A stretch of DNA of 64,000 bases from Gordius albopunctatus. Its lineage: Eukaryota. Under the pieces are notes generated by a model. That model had not been told where the DNA came from. It saw nothing but the letters and a program-made list of their open reading frames with translations, and made no database searches. Numbering within the stretch: the stretch's first letter is position 1; each line of letters starts with the position of its first letter. This document shows, piece by piece, positions 8,658-49,307 of this stretch. A program made the translations under genes and the position numbers. The stretch lies in the NCBI GenBank assembly GCA_964276515.1, contig OZ193909.1, positions 6,014,001 to 6,078,000 on the forward strand. The letters are read 5' to 3'.

Positions 8658-9489
8658 ATTTACACCTTTGGGGCTAAATGGGAAGGAAAAACTTCATAAG
8701 TGTAGCACAAATTAGTGTTTTGGTAGTAGGGTAAATTTTGGCTTGGTAGGTTCGATCGATAGTTAGTTAATTCGCGCTATGGCTATTAGCTTAATTAAAA
8801 TATACGCGTTCGTTTAATTAGGGCTTTTTACCCTGAATCCCAATTGAATAGACCGAGCTGGTTGTATTGATAATAATAGCCTTGAACTCGAGATCAAAAA
8901 AGGATCTAAGGAGCATTAAATCCAAAAATCACAATAGCTTTTGCTTGGCTTTGTGATTTAAACAAACCCTGAGTTCTTTGATAATCGAGAGGTACATTGA
9001 CGCGTTTAACCATCTTTTGGGCGTAGTCAGGTTTTTGAATATAGTGATATTGACAAAATATTATATAATTTTGCGAAATGATGTATTTTATAAAAATTTT
9101 AATTTATTTAGCTTGAAAAAAATATTTTTTGTGTTCAAAACTAAATTGTTTTATTTACTCTTACCATATTCGAGCTAATTTGGTGAATCTCACAGTTACC
9201 ACACCTTGGCAACTTTATACTTCTTGGTATCACATTTTGAGACAGGAAGTGGAGATTAAGTTAAATAACTGACCCTCCCCGTTCGATTTATAAAAAAGGG
9301 CAAGCCGAGCTTTTTTCTGATTTTAAAAGGGACTAATTTTTTCCTAAGTTTAAATGGAATTTTAAATGATTAAAATTTATTATAATTAGTTTATAACTTA
9401 ATAAACTGTAGGCCAAATTATATGTTTGTCATTAATTCAAAATGTTAGATTTAAAAATGACCTCTCAGTGACAAAAAAACTTCTAAAAC

Positions 9490-10328
9490 CAGTGGCGGAC
9501 GCAAAGGGTCCCATTGGAAAAAATATTTTAATATTTTTTAGAATTATATGGAAACCCTCAATGATATTAATAGGACTCTTGTTAGTGTTACGCTTATATT
9601 GTTAACTTTAATTAATTTGAGGTTTAGCTTTAGATGAAAATCTACTAATTCTACCTATTTGTTTACACAAAACATTTTCCTCTCTAGTGCTCGATTTAAA
9701 ATGAAAAGAAAATTAATTCTTAACTATTTCTTAAAAATATTATCTTGCCCTCTGAAATAGATGAGGAAGATAATTTCCGTAATATTCTAAGCGCTAAACA
9801 AGCCTATCGTAACATAATTTAGTTCCTTTTTTTAGACATTGCGAGTGTTAAATCTACTAGACTTAGAACATAGACGCAATTGAGTCACACAATTTAAATA
9901 ATTTAACTGATAATACTTTTTATCAAAAACCTAATGTGGATATTGAATGTATATAACATTAATTAATTTTTGTTGAATCAAAATTTTATGACACAAAATC
10001 AACTCTCCCCCCCCCCACACCATAGAGCAATCCTACCCACCCCACTTAGAGTTGTTAAATTGGTAACTTTCTTCAACTCCAGCTACCATCCGCTCGAGTT
10101 TCTGCTCGGCCCTCGAGCATTTTTATATGCTACTGTTCTGCCTAGTGCACCAAACAACGAGCACATATTGTGCTAACGCGCATATTGCGCAACTCAGTGT
10201 ACGTAGTCGCGTATGGAGTTTGAAGCAAGTTAGCAATTTAACAACTCTAACCCCACTGATGTATATAATTTTAATAAAATTATGATCTATTGAAACCCCC
10301 CTTCGAGGTAATCCTGCCTAGGCCACTG
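9490..10328. mobile_element. Degenerate non-autonomous TIR element (CAGTGGC...GCCACTG) containing a nested MITE
   Basis: 7-bp terminal inverted repeats; flanking 8-mers match only 5/8. Confidence 0.4.
10047..10249. mobile_element. hAT-type MITE, TAGAGTTGTTAAATTG family
   Basis: TIR TAGAGTTGTTAAATTG / CAATTTAACAACTCTA; perfect 8-bp TSD ACCCCACT (10039-10046, 10250-10257); close copy at 22160-22359. Confidence 0.9.
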
Positions 10329-10478
10329 TCACAGACACACGTAGTAGGCCTTCTTATTTAGGAGATATAAATTTAAAGGGAAAAATAATAAATATTTAAT
10401 ACAGAAAATACTGACACCCGTGAAAATTTTAATATTAAACAAAGTCATCACAATAGGATAAATATATATTATAGTAAA

Positions 10479-11837
10479 TTAATTAATTTCATCTAGATCC
10501 TGGGTGTCGGGCTTTGGGTAACATGCGTAACAACAAATAGTTTTAATGAAAAGGGCTGATTTTTCCCTGAAAATAACATTTTCTAAAAATATTAAATATG
10601 GGAACAGATAATATTTCAAGTACAACAAGAAATATATTGCGGCCTGATAATTGGTTTTGCAAGAATTTATGATATTTCCGTTGAATCGTCCTCCTTTCAA
10701 CAAAAAAATTATCCAAGGAACTGTAAATAACAATGTTAAAACGCCCAAACAAAATGTGCTGTAAATCATATTGTTGTAATTTTTTTCTGTAAACAGAGTT
10801 GGCGTCGAACTTTTAAAGGACAACTGGGATATGGTGTAAACCTTGGCGGTTCGCATTTTTTTTACTGAAATATGACTCAGTTCCCCAACCACCTGGCTTA
10901 CCTGAGTTAAAGTAAACATTTTATTTGATATATACGAAAAATAATTATAAATCATGTTTATCACGTTTAAAAAACTAAGGTTAGACTCTAAACTATGCCA
11001 TGCAAAAATCTATGTGAGCTCGCACGTTACTTTAATCCTTCTTTGCGAAAAAGTTTTCGTGCCTATCTTAAGGGTCGACAACGACCGGAAAGATCGACCG
11101 GCGGCCATCTTTAATTTGCAGAGGTAGTAGTAGAGGTAAAAGTTGATAGCCGCTATAAGGAAACAGGGTACGCTGTATAAGGCTGAAACTTGAACTCGGT
11201 TATAATTGTGGGCGAAACGGAGCAAAACAGTTTTCATGGGGGTCGTGGTGGGTTTTAGTCCATAATATTTGGCGAGTGTAGAATCTAGCGCAAGATTAAC
11301 GTATATCACGTAGGGGATGTTGAATGCTAGACAAGCGGCGAAAGTGAGTACAACCAGGTGAGTGAGGGCATTGGAATTAGCGAATCGACGTCTGTAATAT
11401 GCGGGCCAACGAATAGAAATCAGGGCATCTAGGGATATGTAGGCTACCACGTAATTCACGAAGCCCATCAATGTTTCCCCGGAGACCCAATAAAATTTAA
11501 CGAACGTAGCCGATAAATTGACGATTAAATCCGGTTTATACAGAGCGGCTGAACATTTGGAGCCGTGTAGAAAGTAGTGTGGCCAGGAGATCATGAGCAA
11601 ACAAAATATAAGGCAGGAATAATTGACGAATCTTATGAGCCATTTTTTGTGGCTCCTGAATTTGAAAGGGGCTCCGGCTCCTTTAGAGTACTTGTTCATG
11701 GCAAAAATTAGAGCCAAATTTCCAATTAACCCGAACGGGGTCAACACTACTATGGCGAGGGATAGAATGTGATCTCCGCTCGAAATGCCTTTTTTAACCA
11801 AGATTTTATTAGCGTTAGCTAAGGTGAATTCACTCAT
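10479..11837 (-). CDS. Divergent class A 7TM receptor, paralog B; exons 11837-11031 and 10901-10479, about 409 aa
   Basis: Aligns motif by motif with paralog A (GLIGNLAL, FKFRSHKK, GFVNYVVAYISLDALISI, LFTVPWI, LYLKYYLFPYLIF). Phase-0 129-bp intron at the same position (AAA|GTAACG ... CTCAG|GTA). Start at MSEFT chosen by homology; the ORF is open to 11933. Confidence 0.85.
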
Positions 11838-13247
11838 TTTCGTTTTTTTTCTTTGAATATTTATTTGTAAATTATTAGCCGTTAAAATTGGTGTTTGAAT
11901 CAATTTACGCAAAAGGCGAGAGCGCCATGCCACCTAATATTTTTAATTAACTCACATCGTTGGGCTGCAATTGAATAGCTCTTTTGAATAGCGACACTTG
12001 GTGACTAAAGCATCGCGGTCGCTAATTAAAATTTATATAATTGTCCACGATTTGTCAATTGCTACATTATAGAGGCCCTAGTATTAATCATCTCAAAATT
12101 TCTCACCAATTAATGGAAAATCAACATTTTTGCGATATGTATTTATTTATGAGCCCGACGATAAAGGTGACTATTGTACAAAGTAATATTAGTGAATATA
12201 ATGTGATGATGAGTCTATCGAAATTAAAATTTTTGAACGGCGCTTAGCTCATTCTTTTTTCCGAGTGGTTTATAACGGCCAAAACGGTTTTCGTTTAGAG
12301 CAGGACCCCAACTTTCTCGCGGTTGACTTAGAATGATCAAATTCTATATGTATTACGAAAAAATATATTAAATTAATTGTTCAAATAAATTATATAAAAA
12401 ACTCAGTTGGTATCAACAAGAGGCTTTTCCACCCTAACATGTGTAGTCTTGACATTTAAACCTGTGAGCTGCTTTGCCCTAGCCATAAAATTTGTTGATT
12501 AATCAGGGTAAGGAACGGTTTTTACAATTTAAGTATTAGGCTCCAATAATCTATTTATTTCGCAATTTTACCAAAATTAGAAGGGGGGGGGTTTTATTTG
12601 ATGACTAAGCCTTAGACATTGCCATATTATGGTTTAGGGACAAAGTGTCGACTTCAAATAGTAATTTTTCTGGATTAAGATAGGAATCCCTCCTGGCCTA
12701 CATTCCCTGGCGCTATTTCCATGCTGAAGCGATGGAAAACTAAGCCTATTGTAACACTACGCTCTTAATTTAAACGGGCAATTACAAAACACCAATTATA
12801 TTTATCAATTTTGAAAGCCAACTTTGAATCGTTAAATATTGATCTAATTGAGGCCATTATTTGTGTAATTCTTGGTAGGTATAAAATTATCGATCCCTAA
12901 TTAATTGTTAAAAAAATAATTAATAAAATGTGTGAGTAAAAAGTCGAATAGACTCGGTTTATGTGCAAAATTCAAACGTCGGCAAATTCCAAATTAACAC
13001 TTCGTTGGTCCGGCTACTGAGGGTGAGGTTAAATAGTTGTAACTTGATTTTTTGAAAATATTAACTTTATACACTTTATGAACAAAATATTTTAGCTTTA
13101 ATACGTAACTTGCTTCAGATTTAAAAATATCCCCTATTATAAACCCCTGGAGGTTACACAATCCATTAATATTACTGGACTGGATGTACTATAAATTAAT
13201 TAGACATATATTTTAGAAGATATTTCAATCGGAATTGAACTAATAAC

Positions 13248-16200
13248 CTGGTAAAAAGTTCTTTCTTTGCGATTTGTCAAAGCACGATAATTTAGGATAA
13301 AAATCAAAGGGAGTAGGAGTAAAGGGATAGCAGCAATGAGCCATCCCAATGTATTGGCCCAACGTGGGTAAACGTAGGTTGCGTACATCATCGGTTTCAG
13401 ATTGAACCAGGATAAAACGAACAAAAGCTGGAAAAAAGTATGCATATAATTTCAACTTTATTATTCGGTAAAAACATTTGCCTATCTAAACTTCATCAAA
13501 ATGCTTTCTACTTTAAAGCTTCAGCAAGTGGCTCAGGGACTACGTTGTAAAATAATAAAAGTGGCAAAGATCATTCGAAAAAGGGAATTAAAAATACTTA
13601 ATCATTTGCCTCATTCTTGAATCATCACTAAATTTTATGCCCCCCCCCCTATCTCATTTAAATCTTGATTTCGCCCATGGGTTAATGTGTGAAGTGAATT
13701 AGTTGATATGCATTTGCTTCACTTCAATTAATTTAGGTCAAAGAAAGTTTAAAGGCAGAGTGGGGGTGGGTGGCCTACACCTCGGATTGTCTAAAGACCC
13801 GTATTTAAAGAAAAAATCGAATGATACCAATTTCTGATAACCTTCTCCATTGTCATCAAACAATTCCAACTCTCTTTAGTGCGAAAAATTGTAATAACAA
13901 TATGCCAAACCAACAGTTTTGCTTAGAAACAAGATAGAGCATAACTCCAACCCAACTTGCCTGACGATAACTATCTTCTGTTTAGAATGTAAAATTAGTT
14001 ATAAAACAAACAAGTTTAAAAAGCTAAACATTTTATACAAATCTCTTATTTAGAAGTTAAATTATAACGCTGATTTAATTTCGTTGTCTTATTGAACAAG
14101 ATGCATTAAATTCAATACTTATTTATCAAATTTATTTTTGTTGTAAATTTATATTAAACAGAAATCAATTTCTTTATTTATTGAAATGGTAAATTAACTT
14201 TTAATGTTTAGATCGATTTGAAAAAGATATCGGGTCAAAAATGAAAAAATTTTAACCTCGGGTCGGGCTCGGACAAATAAAAAAAAAGAAATTTAAATGC
14301 CTCGATTGCTATTTTACAATCCTGATCAAAATATGACTCTCGACAGAACTGGGGGCTGGAGTCGAAAAAGGTATATAATGTACACTGTACGAAAGTTCTA
14401 TTTATTTTAAATAGAGTCAGATTAATTTAGAAAATATTTCTAATTTTTTTTATCTCTGGTTTGCTTCTGGTGGAGCTTGAGCCTCAGATAGGGCTGGTCC
14501 ATCAGACCATACCCGAGCCCCCCGAGGCCCTATGAATAAATTCTTTTTGTCATACAAGTGGTCAATCCAGAACTATAAGGTTTCGTAACCCGAGGAGGCT
14601 CTACTATCTCCCGTAATATTGAAGAATATACTTGATCAAACCCTGGAAACTGTCACTTAGTATTTATGTGTCTCAAATGTAAGTAATTTAGAAATAAAAT
14701 TTCAAATTTTTGCACACGCTTGGCAATTTGTAGTCCACATGTTAATCCTTATTAAAATTATGATAATTTCTTTAACGAAGCTTACTTATATAAAGTTATT
14801 GTTTGCAAATGCATTAATTTAATCAATCGAATTGATAATAATTTTTACCCCCATCATTAGTGGTAAAATAAACCATAAAGTCATCCAATAATACCAAACG
14901 CGTTTTGACCTTGTGCCAATCATCATCTCTATATCTTGGACGAATGGTTTGACGCCTTAACATAGAAAATTTCATGAATATGCCCGCGATTCTATCATAT
15001 AGTGTAGTATAGCAATTAATAAAATATAATAAATTCATCAATTGATATATAACCATAAATGTATGAGATCGCTATGCCCTCCATCAAGGCTATAAATATT
15101 AGGCCCCAATTTGTGGCAAAACTACTCAGCAGTTCGACCCAATATATTCCAGACTAATGATATAAATATATTAAATAAATTGCTTAATTATATAAAATAT
15201 ACGATTAATTCTGCTTCTTAGCTTACCCTAGAAACGAGCGGGATAGTTATAACGAAATGGATTAGGCATACCAGCCCCGTGATCCCAGACTTTTTCCATT
15301 TACCCAAATTATGAAGATTAAATTTGTCAGCCAACACAGTACAAACAGTTTCGACTCCCGCAAACTAAAAAAAAGATTTTTTAAATAATGATATCAGATG
15401 GGCAAACTTGAAGTATATAGAGAAGTGGAATCTTGTCCCAATTGTTAAAAAAAATAAAATAAGTTAAGGGGGAAAAATAAATAAATAAATAAATAAAGGT
15501 ATTAATTATACCTGACTATCAATCCCTAACAGAATGAGCATGAAAAAGAAAATTATGGACCACAACGGAGGAAATGGCAAATAAAGAAGCGCTTCGGGGT
15601 ATGCGACAAATGCTAGGCCCGTTCCTTTGTTAAACATTCAAATTTTCAGCAATATATTAAACTTTTAACTTATTAATACTAATTTTAAATTATATATAAA
15701 AATAAAAAAGAATATTATTAAATTATTTATATGATAAATTTGCAAAATAAATAGCTTTTAATATATTTTTATTATCCTTTCGTTCAATTTTGTAAATAAC
15801 AATTTACCAGAAGCGGCTATTGAAGCCACTGGAATGTTTTTTACCAAGGACATGTGGCCTATAATGCAAAAAATGGCGAAACCCGCAAAAAGGCTAGTAA
15901 AGGTATTGATCAACGTTACGATCCAAGTGTCGCTAAAACGCCAAAATAAATTTTTATGAACGGAAGTTATTTATTTTAGCTTTAAATGTGTAAAAATTCT
16001 TTTCAAACCGACTTACCGTATGATGTTATTATGAAATTCGTTGTAACTTGATAATGCTATGAGACCTCCTAATGCACAAGAAAGTGAAAAAAAGATTTGC
16101 CCGGCAGCATCTGTCCAAACCTTCAATGAATGAACCGTGTAAAAATTATTATTTAATAATAATATTTAATTTAAATTATAATGCTTTGGTGGAGCCCATT

Positions 16201-19200
16201 AGATTTCAATTTTAAAATCATCTATCTTAATTTTAACCTTTTAAATGATAAAAAGTACGTCAAAAAGTTTGCATCATTATATAAGAACAAAAAAAACAGT
16301 GTAGTAGACGTTATACTGATTATAAGCCAAATTTTTACGAGAACACCTTTGAATTCTAAATCTAAAATGCATTCGCTCAGTAAAAATTAAAATGTGTTAA
16401 AACATTAAACTTGTAAATCGTATAGACGGTTCCAATCTGGATATAAATAAAATTTGATACCATCGATTGCACCCTCCAACATGGAACCTTTGATGACCAG
16501 AATGAGCAAAACGACATAAGGAAAAGTGGCGGTAAAATAAACAACCTGCGCTCATAAAACAGGTCAATTTCATTAAAAATATAATTATTTTTTAAGGTTA
16601 AAATGCTTTTATTAGGTAAAATTGATAAATGAAATATAAAATAAACGAGCATAAAATAATATAAATATATAATTGAGCTTATGAAAGCGCCTTTTGTTAG
16701 TAGGGAAATGGGTTTATATAAAGATCTTTTTGAATCAAACAGAAATAATAATTTCTAAACAAAAACTCAAAACTTCTAATTTATTAAGATGGCTCAAGCC
16801 CATGGGCGGAGTCAGGATTGGAACTAGAGGGGGACAATAATGCTTTAGGGAGAGGTAAAAGGATATTTTTCGAGATTTGAGCCAAAATAAATATTAGATT
16901 TTTAGGTATTTCTGGATTTATAGGGGGCAGCTGCCCCCCCCCTAGCTACGCCCATTAAGCCACGTGTAATCAATAAGTATTTTAAATGTTATCAAATAAT
17001 AATTAATTAAGCAAAATAAATGTGGTTCAAATTCGCTGATTTTAACATTATGATGACACAATCGTTTGCAACTTAAAATCGAATCACCGTGGGTGTTTAT
17101 ATGATTTAGATCAAGGGAGGTGGGAGGGGGGAAATTTTTGACATTTTTAAAATAATTTTTTGATATTTTTAAGAGGGGGGTTAGACAATTGTTCCTGCCC
17201 CCCCCCCCCCTCGGTACGCCCCTGTCATTCGGACATTTTTGAGATATGTGATACTGAAAACTAGTGCTGTAAATGAACTCGTTAAAATTTTATGAACGCG
17301 TTCATGAACGGCGTTCTTTTATTTTTTGGTGAACTTTGAACGTGAACGCGTTCCTTTTTTGATGAACGCGTTCGAATCTAACGTTCGTTCTATTTTAAAA
17401 ACCCTTTTTTCTTTTTATTTATTTGAAAATTAATGTCAATCCGAATTTTTAACAAAAAAGTATTATATTTTTTAATCAGCTATTTTTCTTGTTTCCTTTT
17501 ACCAATTCCGAAATACTTTTAACATACTATAACGTGCAAAAGAAGATAAGATATAAGTTAATTAATTTGATATTATTAATTATAGTTTAATTTATAGGTT
17601 AATATGGACAATCATAATATTATATCGTCGTCATCTTCAGATTCTGAATATTCAAAATCAGCAGATGAATTGAAATTGCCATGGCCAAAATATGAAAAAT
17701 ATTTTTCACTCGTTTCATATAAAAGATCAAATTCAATAATTAAAATGAACCTATAAAGAATAAACTTTTAGTGTTATTGAAAAAAGGGATTGAAACCCCT
17801 AGAATTGATAATGAAAGAGCTGTCAATTCCGAGATATCATTTTTTGGCGAGGAAGTAGAGGGCGCGTTGGAGGATGATATCTTATCGCAATTTTTTGAAG
17901 CGTGGGACAAAAAATTAAAAGTTTTTAATAAATTTCCTCCTTTAAAAAATTTGTTTATTAAGTATAATACTCCAATCCCCTCATCTGCCCCTGTGGAGCA
18001 GGTTTTTAGTATAGCTAATGCTATATTAACTGCCAAGCGTTCCTGCTTATCAGAAGACAATTTTGAAAAACAATTATTATTAAAAATAAATAAGAAAATA
18101 GATTATATTGATTTATAATTATATTGTCGAAATAAAACTATTATTTTTTATAATGGCTATTTATTGTATTAAAAATATAAGTCATTTATTTATATTAAAT
18201 TAAACTTTAAAAAAAGCATCATAAAATTTTGAAAGAACGTCTTTTCTTTTTAAACGAACGTGAACGTGAACGCGTTCGATTTTTTTACAAATGTTTACAG
18301 CACTACTAAAAACTAATGGTGCTAGTTTGTTTTCAAAATAAATTGCAGCGATATTTTGAGGGTTGGCTAAATAATGGAACTTAATAAGGGGATAAAGTTT
18401 TTTGAAAATGATTTGTTTTTAACCTTTCCAGATGATTTGATCCCGCGAATAAGAATCAAATAAACAATGATCCAAGCTAGTAATAGGAGCAGCACAAGAT
18501 GCCAATTTATGCCACCAAATAATTCGATCGAACCCGTCGGTTGGAGCATTTTATTACTAAAAAATGTGTTTTTTCTTGATTAGAAATTTTTAGATACATT
18601 TTGAATTAAGGTTTTTTTTAAAGTTAAAAATTATTTCGTTTTAATTAATAGTCACTTGAAAAATTCTTCCGAGGGTGACACTCTCTGAGTATTATTAATT
18701 AAGGCGTCATAATATGATATGTTGGAAAGTCGGCACTCGTGTTTGAAATAGACCCCTCCTTTGAACTTGCAATCCAAACTTCTGGAATAGTCTTTGATTG
18801 AGAAACAATCTATAAAATATAATTAACCAATCAGAATAATATAAATAAAGGAATCTAGGGAGATGTGACCATCCCGCGAACGAATTTTTGTATATTATTG
18901 CATAGGCTCGTCGCTTTTATTTATGTTTTGAAGCGGTTTTAATTTCAATATATTATTTTATAAGTCAATAATAATCTTCAAAGGCGTAGCCAAGGGGGGA
19001 AGGAAGGGAGGGGTGGCTGCCCCCTTCTAAATCCAAAAAATTGGTGAAATCTATTAAAATTATGGCTAAAATTTCCAAAAATGTTCATTTTGCCCTTCCC
19101 TAAATCATTATTGCCCCCCCCCCATCTAGTGTTGTAAAAAGGGCTGGATTTTGTTTGGTCCACCTTTGGATTGGATCGACAAAACAATAACAACCCAAAG

Positions 19201-20469
19201 ATTATTTCGGCTTTTTTTCTTAATCGCATAAATAGACCAAAAAAAACCAGTCTTTATGATGGCTAAGCCCATTATAATCTTTGAAAAGTTAGTTAAGTAA
19301 GCTATATGGGCGTAAGCCAGGTTTTGGATTATGCAAAACGTAAAAAAATTTTTTCGCCATATATGGTAAGCTATACATCTAATTTTAATCTTCGTTTAAA
19401 ACCTTTTTCAAAGAGTTGTATTAAAGCAATATAATATATGAAAATAATTAACATTTTTAGACACTGCCGTCATACAAAATGGAATCCACGAATATTCATT
19501 AAGTATGCGCAAAAAGATAACACATTTTTATAAAAGCTTAGTTTTACGTTAAAAAAATAAACATTGTGGAAATTGCTGAAAGCTAAACATGCAAAATATG
19601 ATTGCAAAAAGCCTGGGCCCTTTTCAATTCTAAATAATAACTAACACAACAACTATCAATTTTTTTAAGTTGATACTTTATTATTATATATTTATATTAT
19701 TTCTAAAAATTTAGGTAATCTACTGTCCGAATTCCAAGGTTTATTGCAATCTGTCCAAGGTAGCACCCTTTGCATGGAGGCGAATAGGTAATAAAGCACC
19801 CAAGTCAAAATGACATTGTAATACAGATTGACGATTATTGTTATAAAAATCATACCGTAACCGATACCTAATTTTAGTGCAAAAACAACATTTATACTTC
19901 AAACAGTTTTAAATATTATAAGGATTATTTAGTATTTCTTGCTATAATATAAATTAATTAATATACCTTGAGCAAGAGGGACAGCTCTCCATACTTTTAT
20001 AGGTCCTAGGCTTGAAAATTGGCCAAGCGAAATTTCAATTAAAAACAAAGGAATACCCACCAAGAAGAACATGATGAAAAAGGGAATCAAGAATGCACCT
20101 TTAAAACAACAATATTTTGTATTAAAAAAAGTATATGCTAAAGTAATCTGAGAATGAAATAAATTGATTTTAAGGAATTAATGTCAAATTTAAAAGGCTT
20201 AAACAATTTTCGAACAATTTTTTTAGTTGTTGTTATATAACTTGTTTTCCGTGTAAAATCATAACTAAATTAATACTATGCTTACCGCCTCCATTTCTGC
20301 CTGCCATAGCGGGGAATCTCCACACATTGCCCAAGCCAGCGGCGTAGCCTATGCAAGACATCAAAAAATCCAATTTTCCGCTCCATGTTCCTCTTTTATT
20401 CTGTTCCACGCTCTTAATCATAACTGGAATCGCCACGATATCGGGTTTTGAATCCGTTTTCAATTCCAT
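13248..20469 (-). CDS. SLC6 (neurotransmitter:sodium symporter) family transporter, amino-acid/glycine-transporter-like; terminal exon unresolved
   Basis: 13 phase-compatible GT-AG exons: 20469-20286, 20098-19967, 19867-19724, 18809-18656, 18556-18424, 16545-16411, 16120-16017, 15932-15808, 15624-15512, 15364-15227, 15153-15054, 14955-14849, 13427-13248. Motifs [75 protein letters not shown]. Confidence 0.93.
16801..16956. mobile_element. CATGGGCG/CGCCCATG-family MITE, degenerate copy in an SLC6 intron
   Basis: Same termini and internal G-run/C-run layout as the copies at 41803, 42398, 47122, 50437 and 54915; a partial copy also lies at about 18980-19125. Confidence 0.7.
17262..18305 (+). 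mobile_element. Internally deleted hAT DNA transposon in an SLC6 intron
   Basis: TIR TAGTGCTGTAAA / TTTACAGCACTA; 8-bp TSD CTGAAAAC / CTAAAAAC; GAACG subterminal repeats; ORF 17771-18118 holds a hAT C-terminal dimerization motif ([26 protein letters not shown]...[11 protein letters not shown]); probable N-terminal remnant from about 17603. Confidence 0.92.
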
Positions 20470-21160
20470 TGGCACAAAAACAATTGTCAAATCTAATTTT
20501 TACCTGTGCCGTGCAATTTGTCAGTTGTGTTAAATGTACATATCCTTGAATTAAAATGTTAAAATTTTCATAATTTCCGCATTTTTCGCCAAAAACAGTT
20601 TGTTACTCGAACGTAAACACGATCCCAAAATAGAGTGGAATCGCTAATTTATTGTTGGGAAGAATCGAAAAGTGCAGGTATTCGGGCCAAAAATGCGTTC
20701 TATTGCTTTAACACATAATTATCATTTAAAGCTAGCTAGTTTTATTGTGCCTTTTGCCAAATTGTAAAAATAGATATGTCAGGTATTTGCTGTAAATAAA
20801 AATCTAAAATAGTCATAAAAAGCGTGCTGAAAGACTAATTTCTTTTTAATTCTTATTGAACTAAATTTTCAAGGTTTATTACAAAAAAGAAAATATTTTT
20901 AACATGTATAAAATTATCATATATTTTTAAAGTCGGGGAGAATGAGAATAGAGCAACCTTTAAGTTTTATTATTTAAAATTGCCACGTAGAAAATTAAAT
21001 CGCGTTCTAAAAAAACTAAAAATTATTTTTCCAATTTTTTTGTTGGAATATATTTTTAAGGCCTATTTTTACTATAGGAAAAATATTTGGAGGGAAATAA
21101 ATTATAGTTTTCTCACAGATTTAGTTTAAAATAAACAAAAATCCAAAAAATTTCAAAAAT

Positions 21161-22359: not shown

Positions 22360-23505
22360 CTAATAATATTAATAAATGTATGTTTACACAATAGACCAGA
22401 CCATCTTTTTGATTGTTAAGTGTAAAAAATTGTTTGCGTTGCTTTGAAATTATTTCATTTGAGATGCCAAAAGAGACTGAAAAACAACAAATTTGCAATC
22501 TCATCTTTCATAATCTTAGTTATTCCCTAAATTTTATTAGTTCACTTATCAAAACTTTATTTACTATAGCGTGGAGAAACTATATTATAGAAGGCGTTAA
22601 TAATACTCTTAGGCAAAATAAATAATCTATCAAAAATGTGGATATTTTACATAATCTTATACCGTCGTAGTTTTAATATTTTCAAATACCTTGTTAAGTG
22701 ATTAGGCTTCATTTATAATTTCCAAAATAAATATTAAAATTCGACAAAATGATTAAGGCTTAATTTGCTAATACCATCATAGACTGTAAAATTAATTAGT
22801 TTAGATACAAGTGATGGTGTTGCAAGTTGTAATCGCTCTCACATTCTCTAATTAGCAGGGTATAATTTAATAGTCCTTGTAAAAATTGTAAGTTATTCTT
22901 ACTATCTTGAATTCTCGTTTGTATACATTTAAGGAAAAACTAATTTAACGATTTAAAATTTAAATATTTCATCAGAAACACTGACTTATGATGATTAAAC
23001 TGCCTCATCTTTCATCATAAAATCGTAGGAAATTAATTTTCGAAAAATTTAAATCATCTTCCAAAATTTTGATGATGTAAGATTGGATTTTGAAGGACTC
23101 CACTTAGTAATTGAATTGCCTAAGGGTTAACCCTTTTTTCAGTTGAAACGATATTGATGTCTTTAAATATAAGGCCTTATTTTAATGTTACTTTTGTTTG
23201 TTTAAATAGCTAAAATTTAGATGCTTACTTTTAATATCAAAAAGTAAAATTTGATTTAAATTTACACAGGTGGTCATTTTAAATTCCCAACTTAATGCAA
23301 TATTAGTTTTTAACCCATAATGCACCCAATCAACACAGATATGGGCTAAAATCTACTTTCTAAATCTTAATATTGTTATAGTCGAGTTGCTGCCAAACCT
23401 TTTTACTCGGTAACGGTATGTAGCAATGCGTGACAGTATTTAAAGAAGAGACAATGCTTCAGATTTATATTAACTAATTAATTAAATTACTATATCGGAT
23501 ATAAT

Positions 23506-23558
23506 TAACACTACCAACGACGGTCCCAAGTCCGTGTGAAAAAAAGTGGAGGGTTGGC
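23506..23558 (+). ncRNA. Twister self-cleaving ribozyme at the RTE 5' end
   Basis: U|AACACUACCAACGACGGUCCCAAGUCCGUGUGAAAAAAAGUGGAGGG fits the twister core: P2 CACU/AGUG, P4 ACGG/CCGU, T1 CCC/GGG, T2 AC/GU, conserved UAA, CCCAAG and GAGGG. P1 is weak because its 5' strand is flanking DNA. Confidence 0.88.
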
Positions 23559-26500
23559 GTCAGGTCGGAAGCCGGCTGTAAAAAGCAACTCCAAACACCA
23601 TGGCAGCTACAAATACGAACTTATACCAGAATGCTAGGGCGTCCACCCCAAACGACGCGCATTGCATCATCCGCCCGTGCAATGCGAAAAGTATACAAGG
23701 GTCACCGCCTCACTCACAACGAAGGCGGTTAAGGAACCTAGTTGTCGAACGGACAAGAGTGGCTAGCTGGAATGTGGGCACGCTGACGGGGAAGAGCATC
23801 GAGGTTGCGCAGATGCTAAAAAGGCGAAGGATACACATAGCGTGTCTACAAGAAACGCGGTGGCATGGAACAAAAGCCAGGGAGCTAGGAGATGGTTACA
23901 AGCTATACTCCTCGGGTTCACCATCACGGAAGAACGGGGTCGGTATAGTGCTTAGCGATTCCTTTAAGGACAAAGTAGTCGAAGTCAAACGATGCTCAGA
24001 TAGATTGATGTGCATAAAGCTGGCGGATCAAGGCGGCCTTGTCAATGTTATTTGTGCGTATTCGCCCCAGGTTGGATGTTCCGAAAATGAGAAGGACGAA
24101 TTCTATGAGAAGCTCGAAAAAGAAATACGCTACGTGAAGTCTGACGAGAATCTCATCATCAGAGCAGACTTTAATGGGCACGTTGGGAAAGAAAGGGGCG
24201 TGTACGAACGAAATCACGGCGGGCATGGCTATGGGGTGAAAAATAAAGAGGGAGAGAAGTTACTACAGATGGCGCAAGCTTACGATATGGCCATTGTGAA
24301 TACCTTCTTTCAGAAGCGTACCGAACATTTAGCGACGTACAGTAGTGGGGATCACCTTACACAGGTCGACTACATATTAGTGAAGCGCAAAAATTTGTGG
24401 CAAGTTAAAGATTGCAAGGGCATACCGGGGGAAGAAATCGCCAAACAACATCGGCCAGTTGTCCTCGATATAGAAAGAAAGATTTTTCCCGTAAGGAGAA
24501 AAGTCTAACCAAGGACAAAGTACGAAAAGCTTAAGGATGATCGTGCAAATGAAATGTTTCACGCTCGAGCAACTCCGCTCTTGAAGGTTGCAGGCTTGGA
24601 GGGCGACATTAACAAAAGGTGGGGCACTGTTGCAAATGTTCTAAAGGAAACGGCCTTTCAAATATTGGGACGAACTAAGGGCGGCAGAGCTCACAAGCGT
24701 GAACTATGGTGGTGGAATGACTCGGTCAAAGAGGTTATAGAAGAAAAGAAGGCGTTGTACCTACGATGGTACAAAACGAAGAAAGGAGAAGACTACGAGG
24801 CATATCGTGAAGCGAAACGCAAAGCTAAGATAGCGGTTGCGATAGCGAAGAACGAGGCTTACACCCAGATGGCAAACAAGCTCGATACCAAGGGCGGCGA
24901 CATAGTCATGTATAAACTCGCAAAAATCAGGGAGAAAAAAAGTTGAGATGTCGGGACACTTAAAGTCATTAAAAGCGAAGAGGGACGAACGTTGTGCAAA
25001 CCGAAGGAAGTCATCGAAAGATGGAAAGATTATTTCCAAAATATGATGAACAAAACGAATAATAGAAGACCGCTAGAGAGGGTGGAACCGAACTCGAATT
25101 TGGTTTTACCATTGCAGCCTTATGAAGTAGGAGCGCAACTAACGAAGATGCGGAAAGGTAAAGCGCTAGGTCCCGATGATTTACCGATCGAAGCTTGGCT
25201 TGGGTGCAAAGGAGAAGGAATCGCCATAATGATAGGCCTATTTAACGCTATGCTGTATGAGAGTCGTATCCCTGACCAATGGAGGGAAAGTACGATCATA
25301 CCCATATACAAAGGTAAAGGTGACGCGCAGGAATGTGGCAAATTTAGAGGTATCAAGTTGACGTGCCACTCACTAAAACTACTAGAAAGGGTGCTAGTGA
25401 AAAGGCTCAATGACGAAGTTTGTCTCTCGCCCAATCAGTTTGGATTTGTGGCCGGTAAATCAACGATGGACCCAATCTTTGCGTTGAAGCAGACGATGGA
25501 AAAATATGGCTACATAAGAAAGAACTTACACATGGTCTTCATCGATTTAGAAAAGACCTACGATACGGTTCCGAGAGACTTAATATGGTGGTCCCTTAGA
25601 GCCAGAAATATACCCGAAGGATATGTTCGACTTATCAAGGAAATGTATAATGGCGCGGTTGCATCTGTTAGGACTACCGTAGGAGTAACGAAACCCTTCC
25701 GAATAATGATCGGACTACATCAAGGATCAGCGTTAAGCCCATTCTTGTTTAATCTAATTATGGATACAATAACAAAGGACTTGCACAAGCCAGCCCCTTG
25801 GACTATGCTATATGCCGACGATATTGTCCTATGCAATGAAACAAGAGAAGGGGTTTTTCATCAGGCAAAAAAATGGTCAGAACGTTTTTCGGAATTCGGG
25901 TTAAAGGTCAGCGAGAAGAAAACGGTTTACATGCAAACGATGGGCGGTAGTCCGCAAATGCACAAAAATGACGGTCCAATGTACACGGAGGTTGATAAGT
26001 TCACATATCTTGGCTCGCTATTACATCAAGAGGGAGGATGTACCGCCGAAGTCCATTCTCGGATCAAGAAAGCATGGCTCAAGTGGCGCAGCATCTCCGG
26101 TGTCATGTGTGACAAAAAGATACCAATTTGGTTGAAAAGCAAGGCGTACAAAACCATCGTGAGACCGGTCTTGCTTTACGGGAGCGAAACATGGGCTGTA
26201 ACCACCGCGGAGGAGAAACTCTTGCAAGTCACGGAAATGAGAATGGTGCGATGGAGCTTAGGCTACACCAAGCTGGATCGCATGACGAACGAATCCTTGA
26301 TGGCAAAGATGGGTATACAAGCGACGAAGGACTTCTTGAGAGAAAATCGACTGCGGTGGTATGGCCATGTATTACGAAGAGACGAAGACGATGTCACACG
26401 CCGAACGCTGGAGATGGACGTGCCTGGAAGAAGAGGAAGGGGCAGACCACGTGCCACCTGGAAACGACTGGTCGAAAAGGATATGGACGTCAAACAGATG

Positions 26501-26592
26501 GAAATTGGCATGGCATTTACGCGATTCAGATGGAAGAGGCTGCTGAAAACGTACCCCACGTCTGTGGGATTTTCAACAAGATAAAGAAGAAG
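23507..26592 (+). mobile_element. Full-length RTE-clade non-LTR retrotransposon (LINE)
   Basis: 18-bp TSD ACTATATCGGATATAATT at 23489-23506 and 26593-26610; very short (AAG)n 3' tail; one APE+RT reading frame; much higher GC than the flanks. Confidence 0.96.
23600..26584 (+). pseudogene. RTE ORF (AP endonuclease + reverse transcriptase) with two in-frame stops
   Basis: ORFs 23600-24508, 24554-24946 and 24992-26584 share one frame, broken by TAA (24506-8) and TGA (24944-6; CGA in the second copy). Motifs SWNV, LQET, DFNGHVG, QVDYILV, QFGF, HQGSALSP, YADD, RLRWYGHV, RGRGRP. Confidence 0.93.
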
Positions 26593-28667
26593 ACTATATC
26601 GGATATAATTGATTTGCATACATTGTTGTTCACACTTATTCACGCCGATAAAAGATATGTAATATTTATATATAATATATTTTACAAATATCAAATAAAA
26701 TTATCACTATCGTCACAAACGATAAAAATTGTTACAAAGCGGTCGTTTGCGTTTAAAAGTCAAATTTAGAGGTGTATTGTTTTGTGTATAAATAAATTAC
26801 AATAATATGGTAAAAATTTGTCGATTCAAATAATGGGCATTGAAACATAGATGGAACGCCTGCCTACTCATCTATATTTACAAAACATTCCGACCACCCA
26901 AAAAGTTGAGAATCTTTAAAATTAGGATAAACGCATCTGATCGATTCCTTGGATTTCATTCCATTCCCTGTGCAATAAATTTTTTGAAACAAACATTGCT
27001 ATAATTTATGAAATAAATTTGAATCACCAGCAGCATTAATAAACTCAAAATTCAACAATTTCCAAATGTATATGATGAAGCAACAAAGTTAAATGAGGGT
27101 TTCGCCAGATATGATTGTGTCTTATAAGTTATAATTTCATGATAATTTTACCATACGCAATATATTTCACTTATAAGTGCACTGATTAAAAACGCCCAAC
27201 TTTTCGGTCACTGACATTAATTTAAAAAATCAAATTTAACCACAACAGAGAAATAATATTGAGTAAAAAATTTTAAATGGGCCAATCAATCCCAATATAT
27301 TGAAATCAGAAAAAACACGGAAAACGTCAAAATAAATTAAAAACCCGACTTTTTGAGTGATTTTTGAAGGGGTTCTCTGAAAGAGATAAGACCGGCCTCG
27401 ATCATTTTCATGTGCAAATTTTGGATGCCTACGAAGCAGATGACGGAATGTGTGTTATATTCCATTTTGCGAAATTGGAAACCCAACTGCTTATTCGTGT
27501 ACTTCGAGAGGTATTGTTTAGCCTAGACAAATACAATGATGAACATATATGTATCACGAAAAAGGTGAGAGATTTCACAAAGTCCTTTACAAACTTGGAC
27601 GCAGAATATTGGAATTGACTCAGCAGGACTTTGAGCAAACTTCGAAGGTTTAAATCATTGTATAAGTAGAGCCTTGCAAAAATAAATTTCGTCGGTCAGA
27701 ACCCAACGTCCAACTTTTTAATTTGCCCGAGCTCAACCCGATCCCGAAATCTTTTTTTTCTTTCATTTTTAGCTTACCAGAAATTCACCCAAGCCTGGCC
27801 CGGCCTTTGGCCTGATATTCGTATCCGTAATAAGGCGAACCCCTTCCCATTATTAAAATTTTTCCCAGTTTGTCTGGAAAAAGGGAGAATTAAAGAATTA
27901 TACACATTATTATTAAAAATGGTGTGGTAAAGCTTCTGAAAGGGCGAGAGGGCCATTTTTGCGCCTCCTTTAACCTAATTTACCTCAAATTATGGACCAC
28001 CCGAGGAAAAACTAAAAACGTACAAATGTCCAGTGTAAATTTCTCCATTAGAATTAGTGGTGAGATAACGGGATAGAATCACAAAGCCATGATTTATAGA
28101 CCTGTGTAATTGGAGGCCTAAGCTTAAATCGATCAAAAAGAGCACAAATTCTATCAACAATTTTTAATTTTTAAATTCGCATATGGTTTTACAATAAAAG
28201 TTTGAGATGTGTCGGGAGGATTAGTTTTATGGCTAACATAAACTTAATTTCTTAGGTTAACTCTTTCGGCAAAGCAAAGTTTTGTTTTGCGGCATCGGCC
28301 AACCTTGTGTTTTAATTCACCCATTTTGTAATTAAATCCTGAGTTTTGGTTTTATTTGCTAGTATGAACTAAACCCAGCGAAATAAGTTTAAATTAAGAC
28401 GACATCATAGATCGCTGTAAAACTAAAGAACTGGGCCTGGGTACTGTCGTAAGAGTTACATAGAGGGGGGAGCGCTAGTTTGATAGTTTTATAGAGGCCT
28501 ACATTCAGTTATACGTTTAATAGATTGAAAACCCAAATGTTAAAATTAAACCGAGTTGTTCTATTCTATTAAACCATTTATATTTTTTAATCAATAGTTA
28601 AATACAAGTTAAATACAATTTTTTCCAAATTTAAAAGATGGATCAAGTTAGATACAAATAGACAATG

Positions 28668-32857: not shown

Positions 32858-33160
32858 ATGCAAGCTATTGAGTAAGCTATTACTTTGTCCTAATATGTAT
32901 ACATATTTAGACAAGAACAAACCAAAAAGTTTATTAGAAGCTTTGAAACGCAAATAATAATTTGGGATGATGCCCAAAAACATCACATGAATAAAATACA
33001 AGTAGCAAAAGCCTGGCAAGTAGTGGCCAATGATTGCAACTTGTCAGGTAATTAATAACAATAAATATTAAAGTTTTAATAGTGTATCAATGCAAATCCA
33101 AATGGAAAACTTTGAGGAATAGTTTTAGAACAGAGAAAAATAAGAGGACTGAGCCAAGTG
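32858..33160 (+). pseudogene. MADF (Myb/SANT-like) domain gene, 3' part lost at an RTE insertion
   Basis: Exons 32858-32871, 32911-33047, 33083-33160 (39- and 35-bp GT-AG introns) read MQAIEQEQTKKFIRSFETQIIIWDDAQKHHMNKIQVAKAWQVVANDCNLSVYQCKSKWKTLRNSFRTEKNKRTEPSG, with the MADF WD...AW...C..KW..LR pattern. Confidence 0.85.
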
Positions 33161-35022
33161 GTGGAATGACTCGGTCAAAGAGGTTATCTACGATGGTACA
33201 AAACGAAGAAAGGAGAAGACTACGAGGCATATCGTGAAGCGAAACGCAAAGCTAAGATAGCGGTCGCGATAGCGAAGAACGAGGCTTACACCGAGATGGC
33301 AAACAAGCTCGATACCAAGGGCGGCGACATAGTCATGTATAAACTCGCAAAGATCAGGGAGAAAAAAAGTCGAGATGTCGGGACACTTAAAGTCATTAAA
33401 AGCGAAGAGGGACGAAAGTTGTGCAAACCGAAGGAAGTCATCAAAAGATGGAAAGATTATTTCCAAAATATGATGAACAAAACGAATGATAGAAGACCGC
33501 TAGAGAGGGTGGAACCGAACTCGAACTTGGTTTTACCATTTCAGGCTTATGAAATAGGAGCGCAACTAACGAAGATGCGGAAAGGGAAAGCGCTAGGTCC
33601 CGATGATCTACCGATCGAAGCTTGGCTTGGGTGCAAAGGAGAAGGAATCGACATAATGACAGGTCTATTTAACGCTATGCTGTATGAGAGTCGTATCCCT
33701 GACCAATGGAGGGAAAGTACGATCATACCCATATACAAAGGTAAAGGAGACGCGCAGGAATGTGGCAACTTTAGAGGTATCAAGTTGACCTGCCACTCAC
33801 TAAAACTACTAGAAAGGGTGCTAGTGAAAAGGCTCAATGACGAAGTTTGTCTCTGGCCCAATCAGTTTGGATTTGTGGCCGGTAAATCAACGATTGACCC
33901 AATATTTGCGTTGAAGCAGACGATGGAAAAATATGGCGAAATAAGAAAGAAATTACACATGGTCTTCATCGATTTAGAAAAGGCCTACGATACGGTTCCG
34001 AGAGACTTAATATGGTGGTCCCTTAGAGCCAGAAATATACCCGAAGGTTATGTTCGACTTATCAAGGAAATGTATAATGGCGCGGTTGCATCTGTTAGGA
34101 CTATCTTAGGAGTAACGAAACCCTTCCGAATAATGATCGGACTACATCAAGGATCAGCGTTAAGCCCATTCTTGTTTAATCTAATTATGGATACAATAAC
34201 AAAGGACTTGTACAAGCCAGCCCCTTGGACTATGCTATATCCCGACGATATTGTCCTATGCGATGAAACAAGAGAAGGGGTTTTTCATCAGGCGAAAAAA
34301 TGGTCAGAACGTTTCTCGGAATTCGGGTTAAAGGTCAGCGAAAAGAAAACGGTTTACATGCAAACGATGGGCGGTAGTCCGCAAATGCACAAAATTGACG
34401 GTCCAAGGTACACGGAGGTTGATAAGTTCACATATCTTGGCTCGCTATTACATCAAGAGGGAGGATGTACCGCCGAAGTTCCTTCTCGGATCAAGAAAGC
34501 ATGGCTCAAGTGGCGCGGCATCTCCGGTGTCATGTGTGACAAAAAGATACCAATTTGGTTGAAAAGCAAGGCGTACAAAACCATCATGCGACCGGTCTTG
34601 CTTTACGGGAGCGAAACATGGGCTGTAACCACCGCGGAGGAGAAACTTTTGCAAGTCACGGAAATGAGAATGGTGCGATGGAGCTTAGGCTACACCAAGC
34701 TGGATCGCATGACGAACGAATCCTTGATGACAAAGATGGGTATACAAGCGACGAAGGACTTCTTAAGAGAAAATCGACTGCGGTGGTACGGCCATGTATT
34801 ACGAAGAGACGAAGACGATGTCACACGCCGAACGCTGGAGATGGACGTGCCTGGAAGAAGAGGAAGGGGCAGACCACGTGCCACCTGGAAACGACTGGTC
34901 GAAAAGGATATGGACGTCAAACAGATGGAAATTGGCATGGCATTCACACGACTCAGATGGAAGAGGCTGCTGAAAACGTACCCCACGTCTGTGGGACTTT
35001 CAACACGATAAAGAAGAAGAAG
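33158..35022 (+). mobile_element. 5'-truncated copy of the same RTE family (RT ORF 33296-35011)
   Basis: Near-identical to about 24709-26592; 22-bp deletion near its 5' end; YADD changed to YPDD; (AAG)n tail; no recognisable TSD. Confidence 0.95.
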
Positions 35023-35895: not shown

Positions 35896-38800
35896 AATTT
35901 AATTTTATTTTATAAATATATAAAGTTTATTAATATATGGCTAATTATAATACGGTAAAATGTGATACAAATTTAGTATATTAAAAAGAAAAAAATTAAA
36001 TAAGAGCGTTAAATAGCTAATATATCTTCATCTTCCTCTTTGAACGAAGGACAAGAATCCAAAAAGGATTTAAAGTTGAATTTTGAGATTAATATCGCAA
36101 TTGATTGTTTTAGTAGAAATGGGAGAGAATATTTAGAAGGAGGAGATCGTCTGCCTATTTCTTTAAAAAAGGCTAATGCCATTTTCCCATAAGAGCCGGA
36201 ACAGGATGAAACTATGGGGATAAAAATACTTGAGTTTAGAAGGGCCTTGTATTTTGTTAATTTGCGCCCCTCGGCGAGGGCCATTGGATCATAATTGAGA
36301 TTTGAAGGGGTAAACAAATCGATGCATGTGAAGTCCAATTTTAAGAATAGACCGTTTTCTCAGGGCACAATTAAACAAAATCTCGTCTCGGGAGCGATTA
36401 TGAAAATGTCGTCTCGTCTCGGTCTAGAAAAATCTCGATCTCGTCTCAACGAGAATTCTCGTCTTGACTTTAAAAAAAAATATGTACTGAATAAAAATTT
36501 CTCCTGTTTTATTAAAAATATTAAATAAGTGTTAAAAATTAAAATGGCAAATATTTATATTTTTTTATAAACTTTAAAACACAAACTTTTTACATTGTCA
36601 ATGTAAAGATATATATTCATTCAAAAAAATAACATTTTCTATGGAAAGTGCAGACTAAAAAACTATAAATAAATTTGAAGTATATAAAAATCAATTTTAT
36701 TGTTCTAGCAAATTATAACATTTGTATCAAATCACTGTGTTTGTCAACTATATAGTTATAGATAGACTTAGATAATAATAAATAGGTTATAGTTGACTTA
36801 GTGGCACAATTTAGCAAATTGAGACCCTTTATTAACCCTGGCTAAAGCCTCAAAGTTGACTTTAACATATTTAAGGCAAACATTTAAGTCCATTAGTACC
36901 ATCATCAATTATAGCCCATAGTGTTTATTGCATGTTTACTATAGCGCTATAAACCACAAAGTGCGAGTGACTTTTAATGATAATATTATGAATTACAGAA
37001 TTGATAACTAGATGCCCCTATAAAAACGGGTAGTAGAAACAACAATAAAAGCATCATTATTATAGGAATAAGAATATGAAGTTTTAAACTTTAAATTGCA
37101 CGTATTTAAATTTATGACAAAAATAATTAAAATCAAATTTATATTCCAAATAATTATCTTCCAATTCTAACTAACTTTGACATTAAATAGTTATTTATCG
37201 AATATAGTTGAAGCATAAAAACTTCTAGAAAACTTATGCTTTAGATTTAATCTATTACGGTGTCATTAAATACTCTATTGTACTTTTGAAATCGTTAAAC
37301 GGGTGCTCAAAAATCTCGAGCCACCTTAGCTTAACTAGTTTAATTATTCAAACTGATTGACCACCAATTTATAATTACCGCATTATGCACGATGAGTAAC
37401 TGCGAAATATAAATATGCTTTGTTTATATTTACTATTCAATCAGATCTCATTCTAAGCCTATAATTTTGTAATATTTAATAATGTTATGGATTCAAATAT
37501 GTGATAAAGATATTATAAAATTATTCACATACCCTAAGGGTCAACCATACTTAGGTATATGTTGCAAAAAATATAATATTTACAGGAATTTTTTTATTGT
37601 CAAATATATTCCATACATATTGATTTACACTTAATACCTTAAATGTAAATCATGCAAATTAAAATACACAATAATTTACTAAAATCTAACGATAAAAAAA
37701 GTCGAGATCTCGCCGAAAAAATCTCGTATCGTCTCGTCTCGACATCGAAATTCTCGACCGAGATTTTTCTCGGTTTTTCCGCATCAATAGTCAGGGCGCC
37801 TTCGACCCTCAAGAGAGGGGTCTGACGGCTCAAGAATGGACGGGATTTTAGCCTTTTTAAGCGCTGACTGGATGATGGAGTTTATTTTAGAGTGTCGTAT
37901 GTGTCTGAATTTGTTTAACCTGCAATGTAATGGATGACGGGCTTCTTCGTCAACTGGCAAGTTGGAATTCCTACATGCATATGGTTTGGTGTATTTGATA
38001 CCAAGGCGTAGAGCTATACTGTAGGATAGCTCGGAGTCATCCAACATCATGTTTGAATATTTACTGGGATAAGCCTCAAGCCATTTGTGGCCAGATTTAT
38101 CAAACACCAATGACCGAAGGTTGTAATGTTGTTTGGTATCGCTTCTCGGAGCGCGAAACCAAACAAGCCTCCCAATCTTTTTGAATGGATGTTTGTGGAT
38201 AGGAGGTTTCTGGAATAACATTAAGGTTCCAGAGGGATAGGACCTTGACGAATGTTTCATCGGAGGGGTATGGGATTAATTTTTCTACAATGGATTTTGA
38301 AGAAAGGTGGGAGGATATGAATGAGGCCAATGATAAGGAGCTTGGTAAACGAATTCCCAGGCCTCCAGATTTTGTTGGTAATGTGGCTTGTAGCCAGGTG
38401 TTTGTATCGAATGATAAGTTGAGGGTGGATTCCATGACGGATTGCGCTTGTAGATCGGAAGCAAAATAATATTTTGGCAATATTAAAGTAGTTTTTTAAT
38501 ATATAAAATCCGTGATGGGCGGGCAGAAACTTAAAAATTTTATTTTTACATTTTAAGTTCTTAAGGTTATTGTCGAGATATTTTTTTAAAGATTCTGGAC
38601 CGCCCATTGGACAACCTAGTAAAATACCTCGTCCTTCTCAAGGCGTAGAAAAGATGCAAAGGATGGGTGGATGTCAGTTGTGCTGTTGGAATAAATTTCG
38701 CATTTTGTCGCATTTAATGATAGATTAAGTTTTATGTAGTATTCATTAATGGTGTCAAGAGCTTTGATTATCTCTTCCGTGGTGCCTGATAGGGTGGCAT

Positions 38801-48676: not shown

Positions 48677-49307
48677 TAGAGCCCTGCACGGGCCGCTCAT
48701 AGCCCGACCCGGCCAGAATTTGATAAAATTCGGGTCTCGGGCTCGGATGGAGCCTGATGAGGGGGCCCGACCCGAGGCCGGCCCGAATCGAACGAAAGCA
48801 AATTAATCTTTATAAAACACGATTTAAATAAACTCAACTCGATATTAAATAATTATCTTCTCACATAATATAGCTTCCAAACCAGCTCTTCCCCCTGACT
48901 ATTATAATTTAACTGACCTGAATTGCAAATTTTATTCTAGTATTTAAATAGATTCATAGTAGCTGTTAGAACTTTGGAAATAAGATAGGTATATATTTCA
49001 TATGGTTTTTTATTTGAAACTGTTAAAAATATATTTTATAAAGTTAGATTTTTAGTTCAAAATTATCAGCTGAATAAATTTAGTGAAAATGGATTTCTTA
49101 CAAGCTTATCCTTGTAATTTGAGATTAATAACAATCCAATTTTATATTTAGATGGTGAAATAGCTATCGAAAATATAATTTTTTTAAAATTTCATTTGAA
49201 AATTCGGGTCGGGTCAAAAAATAAAAAGTCTTCCGGGCTCGGGCAAAATAAAATTTGAGAAGTCGGGCCGGGATCGGGCAGAAGAAATTTCATTTTGCAG
49301 GGCTCTA
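48677..49307. mobile_element. TAGAGCCCTGCA-family MITE
   Basis: TIR TAGAGCCCTGCA / TGCAGGGCTCTA with CCCGA/TCGGG subterminal repeats; no clear TSD. Confidence 0.85.

Follow-up and report, generated by a model that had tools for sequence, protein, structure and literature searches.

The closest described counterpart of the locus studied here is Perere-3, a long interspersed nuclear element (LINE) of the RTE clade in Schistosoma mansoni. Perere-3 is headed by a T-variant twister ribozyme that cleaves in vitro and in yeast, and translation takes place after cleavage (Liu 2021, PMC8501958). Truncated twisters conserved at RTE-superfamily 5' ends, with a role in 5' processing, were announced as 'in preparation' by de la Pena and colleagues (2020, PMC7761336), in a statement that gives the same general association as found here, without data or named lineages. 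Our literature search did not find the full publication of this RTE-wide work. Hepatitis delta virus (HDV)-like ribozymes in R2, RTE, Baggins and L1Tc elements (PMC6765202) likewise self-process the 5' end of LINE RNA from a co-transcript, with a different fold. The mechanism of a twister-headed LINE, modelled for Perere-3 and announced RTE-wide in 2020, is thus not new, and the initial annotation of the present sequence rightly treated such elements as known, for instance in Schistosoma. Here we describe an RTE element in 64,000 nucleotides of Gordius albopunctatus contig OZ193909.1 (hereafter 'the window'), whose first base falls at a predicted twister cleavage site. In the reading we favor, to which we assign a probability of about 0.85, this coding-dead element begins where the twister would cut; the ribozyme, which lacks P1, likely frees the element RNA from a longer host transcript, and a downstream pseudoknot would serve the uncapped product. 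Feature coordinates are collected in Table 1.

Perere-3 and the window element have in common a twister at the 5' end of a LINE with apurinic endonuclease (APE) and reverse transcriptase (RT) domains, a target site duplication (TSD) that directly adjoins the cut-site AA, a 5' side of P1 provided by host DNA, UUGG after GAGGG, and a short repeat tail. The window twister differs in having no P3 stem, A-U/C-G pairs in T2, an outer A-U pair in P4 and an L2 that is 4 nt longer. It lies in another host lineage, and its cut site is about 93 nt from the AUG, compared with roughly 112-147 nt in Perere-3. We found no downstream pseudoknot described for Perere-3 in Liu 2021.

The limits of the element are given by an 18-bp TSD, ACTATATCGGATATAATT, of which the whole window contains two exact copies. 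Neither can be extended by a base at either end, which makes the 5' junction at 23506/23507 unambiguous and bears out its original placement. Between the two copies lies an element of 3,086 bp (23507-26592) that begins with AACACTACC and has 47% GC, against 27-31% in the flanks. It has one open reading frame (ORF) with APE and RT, running from an ATG at 23600 to a stop at 26582-84 and broken by two stops in this copy, followed by a very short repeat 3' untranslated region (UTR), a feature of RTE elements (Tay 2010, PMC2887409). Among the matches listed, at least 120 full-length homologs are 39-45% identical to its protein. One of these, P0055 (42% identity over 94% of the query), has a close counterpart in the RTE/Rex3 protein file that accompanies Tay et al. 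2010 (PMC2887409); it is this resemblance that ties the element to named RTE elements. We classify the element as an RTE-clade LINE of complete extent that cannot encode its protein. The initial term 'full-length' therefore holds from TSD to TSD but not for coding. A second, 5'-truncated copy elsewhere in the window lacks the ribozyme, and no TSD was found around it.

The Rfam twister-P1 model (RF03160) matches 23502-23557 in a scan of the whole window (41.6 bits, E 9.4e-6) and sets its consensus U-A-A on 23506-23508; twister cleavage falls between that U and A (Liu 2021, PMC8501958). A descriptor search likewise found a single twister on the plus strand of the 64-kb window, at 23507. In this descriptor P2, P4 and T2 are fully paired; the T1 strands CCC and GGG are present, as are the conserved A+1, A+2, general-base G, L4 UCCCAAG and GAGGG. 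P1 is reduced to 2 of 4 pairs in this copy, and P1 has been reported to be dispensable for twisters. The ribozyme is best filed as a T-variant-like twister, because a missing P1 helix also defines the T-variants. The junction is observed, and self-cleavage at 23506/23507 is what this intact core predicts.

The initial annotation had compared the ribozyme with a rice twister sequence. We took the rice Osa-1-4 sequence from the column heads of the supplement matrix of Kobori and Yokobayashi 2016 (PMC5113685), compared A7-G49, and obtained relative activities by counting columns of that matrix. The window twister shares the P3-less topology of Osa-1-4 and RF03160 and is identical to Osa-1-4 at 37 of 43 positions. 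The differences are G13A, U18C, C20A, C31U, G35U and A36G, together with four inserted nucleotides in L2; the window element, unlike Osa-1-4, also encodes no P1 of its own. The retained core and the two compensatory pairs, G13A/C31U in T2 (G-C to A-U) and C20A/G35U in P4 (C-G to A-U), had been correctly recognized; U18C, A36G and the L2 insertion had gone unmentioned. In the rice ribozyme, G13A alone leaves a relative activity of 0.17 and G13A/C31U restores 0.89, while C20A/G35U scores 0.94, U18C 0.96 and A36G 1.03 (PMC5113685). Since both double mutants are active in rice, both compensatory changes are compatible with activity. Natural twisters also tolerate P1 imperfections and variable L2 length (McKinley et al. 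2024, PMC11662667). In 36 related RTE twisters the 3' strand of T2 is GC in 33 cases and AC in three, and GU, as in the window, in none. Changing the first G of GAGGG, the catalytic-G position proposed for a dead mutant, to A leaves 0.52 of the activity in end-point assays (PMC5113685) and would hence be a leaky control.

We then considered whether other copies of the family start at the same base, using contigs from the public runs X1, X2, X3, X4, X15 and X16 aligned to the element; the figures below refer to the rows listed. X1 and X2 belong to one study, which contains this very insertion, and X4 comes from another organism and another study. In X1 the flank has a summed depth of 430, which climbs at the junction to about 10^6. 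Unrelated AT-rich DNA precedes 23507 in 29 (X1), 29 (X2) and 24 (X4) contigs, and these parts agree with the window flank at 0.47-0.49 only. For the 71-base stretch, all eight rows of 5' loose ends fall at 23503-23507 (X1: 7, 10, 15 and 11 contigs; X4: 6, 8, 7 and 11), a spread expected if copies start at 23507 and AT-rich flanks match by chance. We dropped a reading of this leftward spread as a preference for T at -1, which is biased by the minimum match length. The other large classes of loose ends correspond to an alignment break at an A-run (23541) and to a sister subfamily that aligns again from 23766; 6 contigs in X4 form a small class at 23628. Family copies thus mostly start at or beside A23507, rather than at the scattered positions that would have spoken against the initial proposal. 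The sister subfamily, whose loose-end consensus keeps the T2 AC/GU and P4 A-U changes, has the ribozyme and UTR in common with the element and diverges after 23595, with joints from 23544-23595 to 23663-23783. Some of these joints may represent internally deleted, non-autonomous copies.

The association extends well beyond this family. We gathered 91 RTE loci by endonuclease alignment only, blind to RNA (80 of 557 confirmed metagenome matches, one viral and 10 from prokaryote assemblies). A twister core in sense orientation lies upstream in 36 of the 91, and in 35 of the 66 with at least 250 bases of upstream sequence; control sequence of 524,990 bases contained 0 cores. Rfam confirmed the twister in 15 of 20 hand-picked loci and in 4 of 12 further loci. 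In one locus (L097), an 11-bp TSD ends at the cut site. None of the 23 complete cores has lost the catalytic A or G, although the descriptor used to pick them required both. P2 and P3 vary freely in sequence among these relatives with pairing preserved, and P2 shows compensatory changes. Of 23 loci, 16 have T at -1 (p 0.0015 in a binomial test with 37% T); we do not use this as evidence, as assemblers prefer the majority base. For the endonuclease part of the window element, the closest named match is a protein of the horsehair worm Gordionus (70%; next at most 54%, among the matches listed), and a quick tree joins the two with support 99. Judged from this mobile gene, the host is probably a nematomorph. 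Twister-headed and other RTE loci interleave in the quick tree, from which we claim no order of events.

Several of the loci surveyed deserve mention in their own right. The ten prokaryote assemblies with RTE endonuclease relatives (L105-L114), four of which are twister-headed, probably reflect eukaryotic contamination. In viral contigs, a single-protein scan found no relative; the twister pattern occurs there at 23 loci, and the twisters in the 20 scanned are of type P5. Two phage contigs (L013 and L019) carry at least five twisters of type P5 in a span of about 4 kb or less. The nearest metagenome relative of the element (54%; L024:1-200) has a twister remnant without P4/L4, followed by an intact downstream module and an in-frame ATG. 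Its head is presumably a tRNA-like A/B-box, judging from the motif, and L024 is possibly an RTE element that swapped its ribozyme for an RNA polymerase III promoter.

The downstream module just mentioned is, in the window, a second conserved structure that takes in the 3' strand of the twister P1 and ends 7 nt before the AUG. The 32 loci that we aligned comprise the window, three loci without an intact twister and, near-duplicates dropped, 28 of the 36 twister loci. The stem is paired in 88.8% of 224 cells and both sides are changed in 39 cells, each value being reached in 0 of 500 shuffles, whereas slid controls are 18-55% paired. Loops fit their own partner strand better than those of other loci (217 vs 181.9+/-7.1; 0 of 2000 permutations); in the window copy the complementarity comes down to only 3 bp. 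Counted from GAGGG, 28 of the 32 loci have an in-frame ATG at a distance of 44-63 bases, compared with 9 and 3 for the other frames. A model of the stem only matches 59 of the 91 RTE loci (31 in the training set), once per locus and always on the plus strand, and gives 0 matches in the 23 viral-contig loci with the twister pattern. Its 28 matches outside training reduce to 15 when near-duplicates are removed, of which 12 were parsed. In these held-out loci, the loop partner stands at offset 9-11 in 10 of 12, the loop-partner score is 73 vs 69.2+/-1.5 (20 of 2000 permutations) and an in-frame ATG is present in 8 of 12, vs 1 and 1 in the other frames. Because no twister was detected in them, the module appears more widespread than the ribozyme.

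These comparisons identify 23555-23592 as a covarying structure, likely a pseudoknot, and a candidate element for translation or protection. We give roughly even odds to a role in helping uncapped RNA start translation, which we favor because the distance between module and AUG is fixed; a nuclease roadblock, or a handle for the element's protein, appears less likely. A label such as internal ribosome entry site or exoribonuclease-resistant RNA would draw solely on the position before the AUG, and no Rfam family matches the module. At the level of titles and abstracts, our literature search found no described pseudoknot of an RTE or other non-LTR retrotransposon linked to translation initiation or to a ribozyme.

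The module also bears on P1. In the 23 complete-core loci, pairing between host DNA and the four bases that follow GAGGG is at chance level (40 of 92 paired, 40.9 expected), and three of these four bases covary with the downstream strand about 20 bases on. Since covariation thus links the strand that Rfam assigns to P1 with a downstream partner, a true P1 helix is likely not required by the ribozyme, and restoring P1 for cleavage, as the initial annotation had envisaged, is probably unnecessary.

Taken in order, the mechanism would run as follows. The twister frees the element RNA from a longer host transcript, leaving a 5'-OH-AAC end; every complete copy, reverse-transcribed up to the cut end, would then have its TSD abutting A23507, and the downstream pseudoknot may aid translation start on, or protect, the uncapped RNA. 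That host read-through would supply the RNA, as the initial annotation also proposed, is taken over from the published model. A promoter for RNA polymerase II within the element, starting transcription at 23507, as in L1, would likewise give fixed 5' ends, the conserved sequences being promoter parts or an inactive relic. In tobacco, and for the LP head of RTE-9_CPB (Matetovici 2016, PMC4758252), RTE 5' UTRs have been regarded as promoters, and this copy has no evident read-through source. We find this explanation improbable, since a DNA promoter leaves unexplained the compensatory changes in T2, P4 and P2, the coincidence of the junction with a chemically mapped cut site, and the freedom of P2 and P3 to vary with pairing kept. 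Still more improbable is that the RNA stays uncut and the reverse transcriptase halts or jumps at the compact fold's edge. RNA structure can block reverse transcription, and 5' truncation is common, as in the second copy of the window. An enzyme arriving from the 3' side, however, would stall near 23553-23592, before copying the fold to A+1, and the retention of the catalytic A and G, with the proviso made above, also speaks against stalling.

An unlikely alternative, but one we take more seriously than these two, concerns P1. In the model of Liu et al. the family ribozyme needs a host-supplied P1; this copy, with 2 of 4 pairs, would then cleave poorly, and the downstream fold would form only after cleavage. 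TSD-made P1 stems have indeed been proposed to tune activity, and cleavage without P1 has been called inefficient (Liu 2021, PMC8501958); the chance-level P1 of daughter copies, moreover, says nothing on selection in source copies. The covariation of the P1 3' bases with the downstream strand argues for the P1-free ribozyme we prefer, as do large-scale assays in which P1 imperfections had no effect on the fraction cleaved.

A number of observations weigh against cleavage at the head of the element as we propose it. The covariance-model match foreseen in the initial annotation was obtained at the cut site, but its 41.6 bits are below the Rfam gathering cut-off of 67.2; all 19 RTE-linked twister matches also miss this value (best 65.9), and RTE relatives without P3 score 40-49 bits. 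Minimum-energy folding, with a program incapable of pseudoknots, does not yield the twister fold, and the activity expected of the six substitutions together with the L2 insertion is extrapolated from separate assays. As for other copies, X1 and X2 count as one study with this insertion among their contigs, X3 has no loose end at 23507 among the rows listed, and X15 and X16 gave no aligned contigs on the 71-base stretch. Depth still climbs by about 13% from bin 23509-11 to 23515, so that a minority of copies may start a few bases inside 23507. Among related loci, 55 of 91 have no twister core, many with short upstream sequence, and L097 has the only convincing TSD in 33 parsed loci (L040 has 7 bp); few TSDs are expected there because repeats collapse in metagenome assemblies. 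The module structure was drawn by eye on the same related sequences used for testing, one pair-count covariation measure is not significant (92 of 500), RNAalifold unaided recovers 3 of the 7 pairs, and most held-out loci have one loop sequence in common. Its predicted stability is marginal, the downstream stem having +0.5 kcal/mol in this copy. Finally, upstream of this copy the window showed no host gene on the sense strand. The element sits 3 kb upstream of the nearest recognisable host gene, a member of the SLC6 family, in the opposite sense. The source copies must sit at other loci.

Table 1. Features of the RTE element and its surroundings in the window
Feature	Position	Strand	Evidence or remark
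5' TSD, 18 bp; last base is ribozyme U-1	23489..23506	+	exact second copy at 26593-26610
Twister core without P3	23507..23553	+	RF03160 41.6 bits; descriptor; 37/43 identity to Osa-1-4
A+1, general acid (A23507)	23507	+	RF03160 match; conserved base
P2	23509-12/23545-48	+	pairing transferred from rice twister
T2 pseudoknot	23513-14 (AC)/23530-31 (GU)	+	pairing transferred from rice twister
P4	23520-23/23532-35	+	pairing transferred from rice twister
T1 pseudoknot	23525-27/23551-53	+	pairing transferred from rice twister
General base (G23549)	23549	+	conserved base
Second conserved module, likely H-type pseudoknot	23555..23592	+	covariation, loop-partner test, model search
Module stem	23555-58/23575-78, 2-nt bulge, C23561-G23574, bulged A, GG/CC 23563-64/23572-73	+	covariation
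Module loop, A-rich linker, and partner strand complementary to loop	loop 23565-71; partner 23590-92	+	loop-partner test
Single APE-RT ORF, 994 codons	23600..26584	+	reading frame; Pfam PF03372, PF00078; homologs
Nonsense codons in APE-RT frame	24506-08 and 24944-46	+	translation
3' UTR, 8 nt, AAG/GAA repeat	26585..26592	+	sequence
3' TSD	26593..26610	+	exact copy of 5' TSD
Second copy, same family, 5'-truncated, 96% identical, without ribozyme	33158..35019	+	blastn, repeat search
SLC6 sodium:neurotransmitter symporter exons	20236-20499, 19932-20177, 13203-13451	-	nearest recognisable host gene

The window holds further features. A hAT dimerisation remnant (17744-18115) lies inside the minus-strand SLC6 span (13203-20499). 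A degenerate reverse transcriptase of another non-LTR family, with a weak RVT_1 match, occupies 37784-39766 on the minus strand. A tandem pair of membrane-protein ORFs (5943-11933, minus strand) resembles G protein-coupled receptors by eye and has no Pfam match; the one ORF of the pair that was searched gave no homologs. We also observed a 1.3-kb element with 127-bp terminal inverted repeats (48884-50182) and a dispersed repeat family with a spacing of about 90-270 bp (44416-45396 and 55285-56044).

Short, widely conserved pieces of RTE 5' UTR have been known as sequence, namely the Ceph domain of bipartite SINEs (short interspersed nuclear elements; Kojima 2018, PMC5786205) and the LP head (Matetovici 2016, PMC4758252). 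The module is likewise such a piece; the others are described as sequence, not structure, and the LP head, compared by description only, lies at the very 5' end of its element, unlike the module. An identity of module and Ceph domain was rejected, as the Ceph-domain sequences in the Kojima 2018 supplement differ. The RTE-derived 5' part of SINE2-2_ACar shows, by eye only, a similar stem and loop-partner layout. Some twister-free RTE relatives retain the downstream module. We label these HDV-like by motif, although Rfam gave no HDV match. As a tentative generalization, which we hold as rather less than an even bet, the RTE 5' UTR might combine an exchangeable head (twister, HDV-like ribozyme or even tRNA-like promoter) with a clade-wide, undescribed pseudoknot near the AUG that replaces P1 and enables translation of 5'-OH uncapped RNA. 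If true, this two-part 5' UTR would also account for the 5' UTR piece kept by RTE-mobilised bipartite SINEs.

The suggestion in the initial annotation that this lineage's instance is unreported appears to stand within the literature covered here. Twister ribozymes and Nematomorpha were not found together in our literature search; the supplement of Liu 2021 lacks both 'Gordi' and the GU-type L4 string (the latter might be hidden by line breaks), and the main text of the Gordionus genome preprint makes no mention of RTE or ribozymes. The McKinley 2024 supplement may hold a nematomorph or T2 A-U twister.

Data for the mechanism of a twister at the 5' end have so far come from one parasite genus. 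The present work contributes a family that is probably nematomorph, a naturally occurring compensatory change in the pseudoknot most sensitive to mutation, and another 36 RTE loci from across the tree. The finding raises the question of what protects a LINE RNA, and what allows its translation, once it has cut off its own cap. As a covarying structure ahead of the AUG, the module offers a 40-nt target with pairs that can be broken and restored, and it is the part most worth following.

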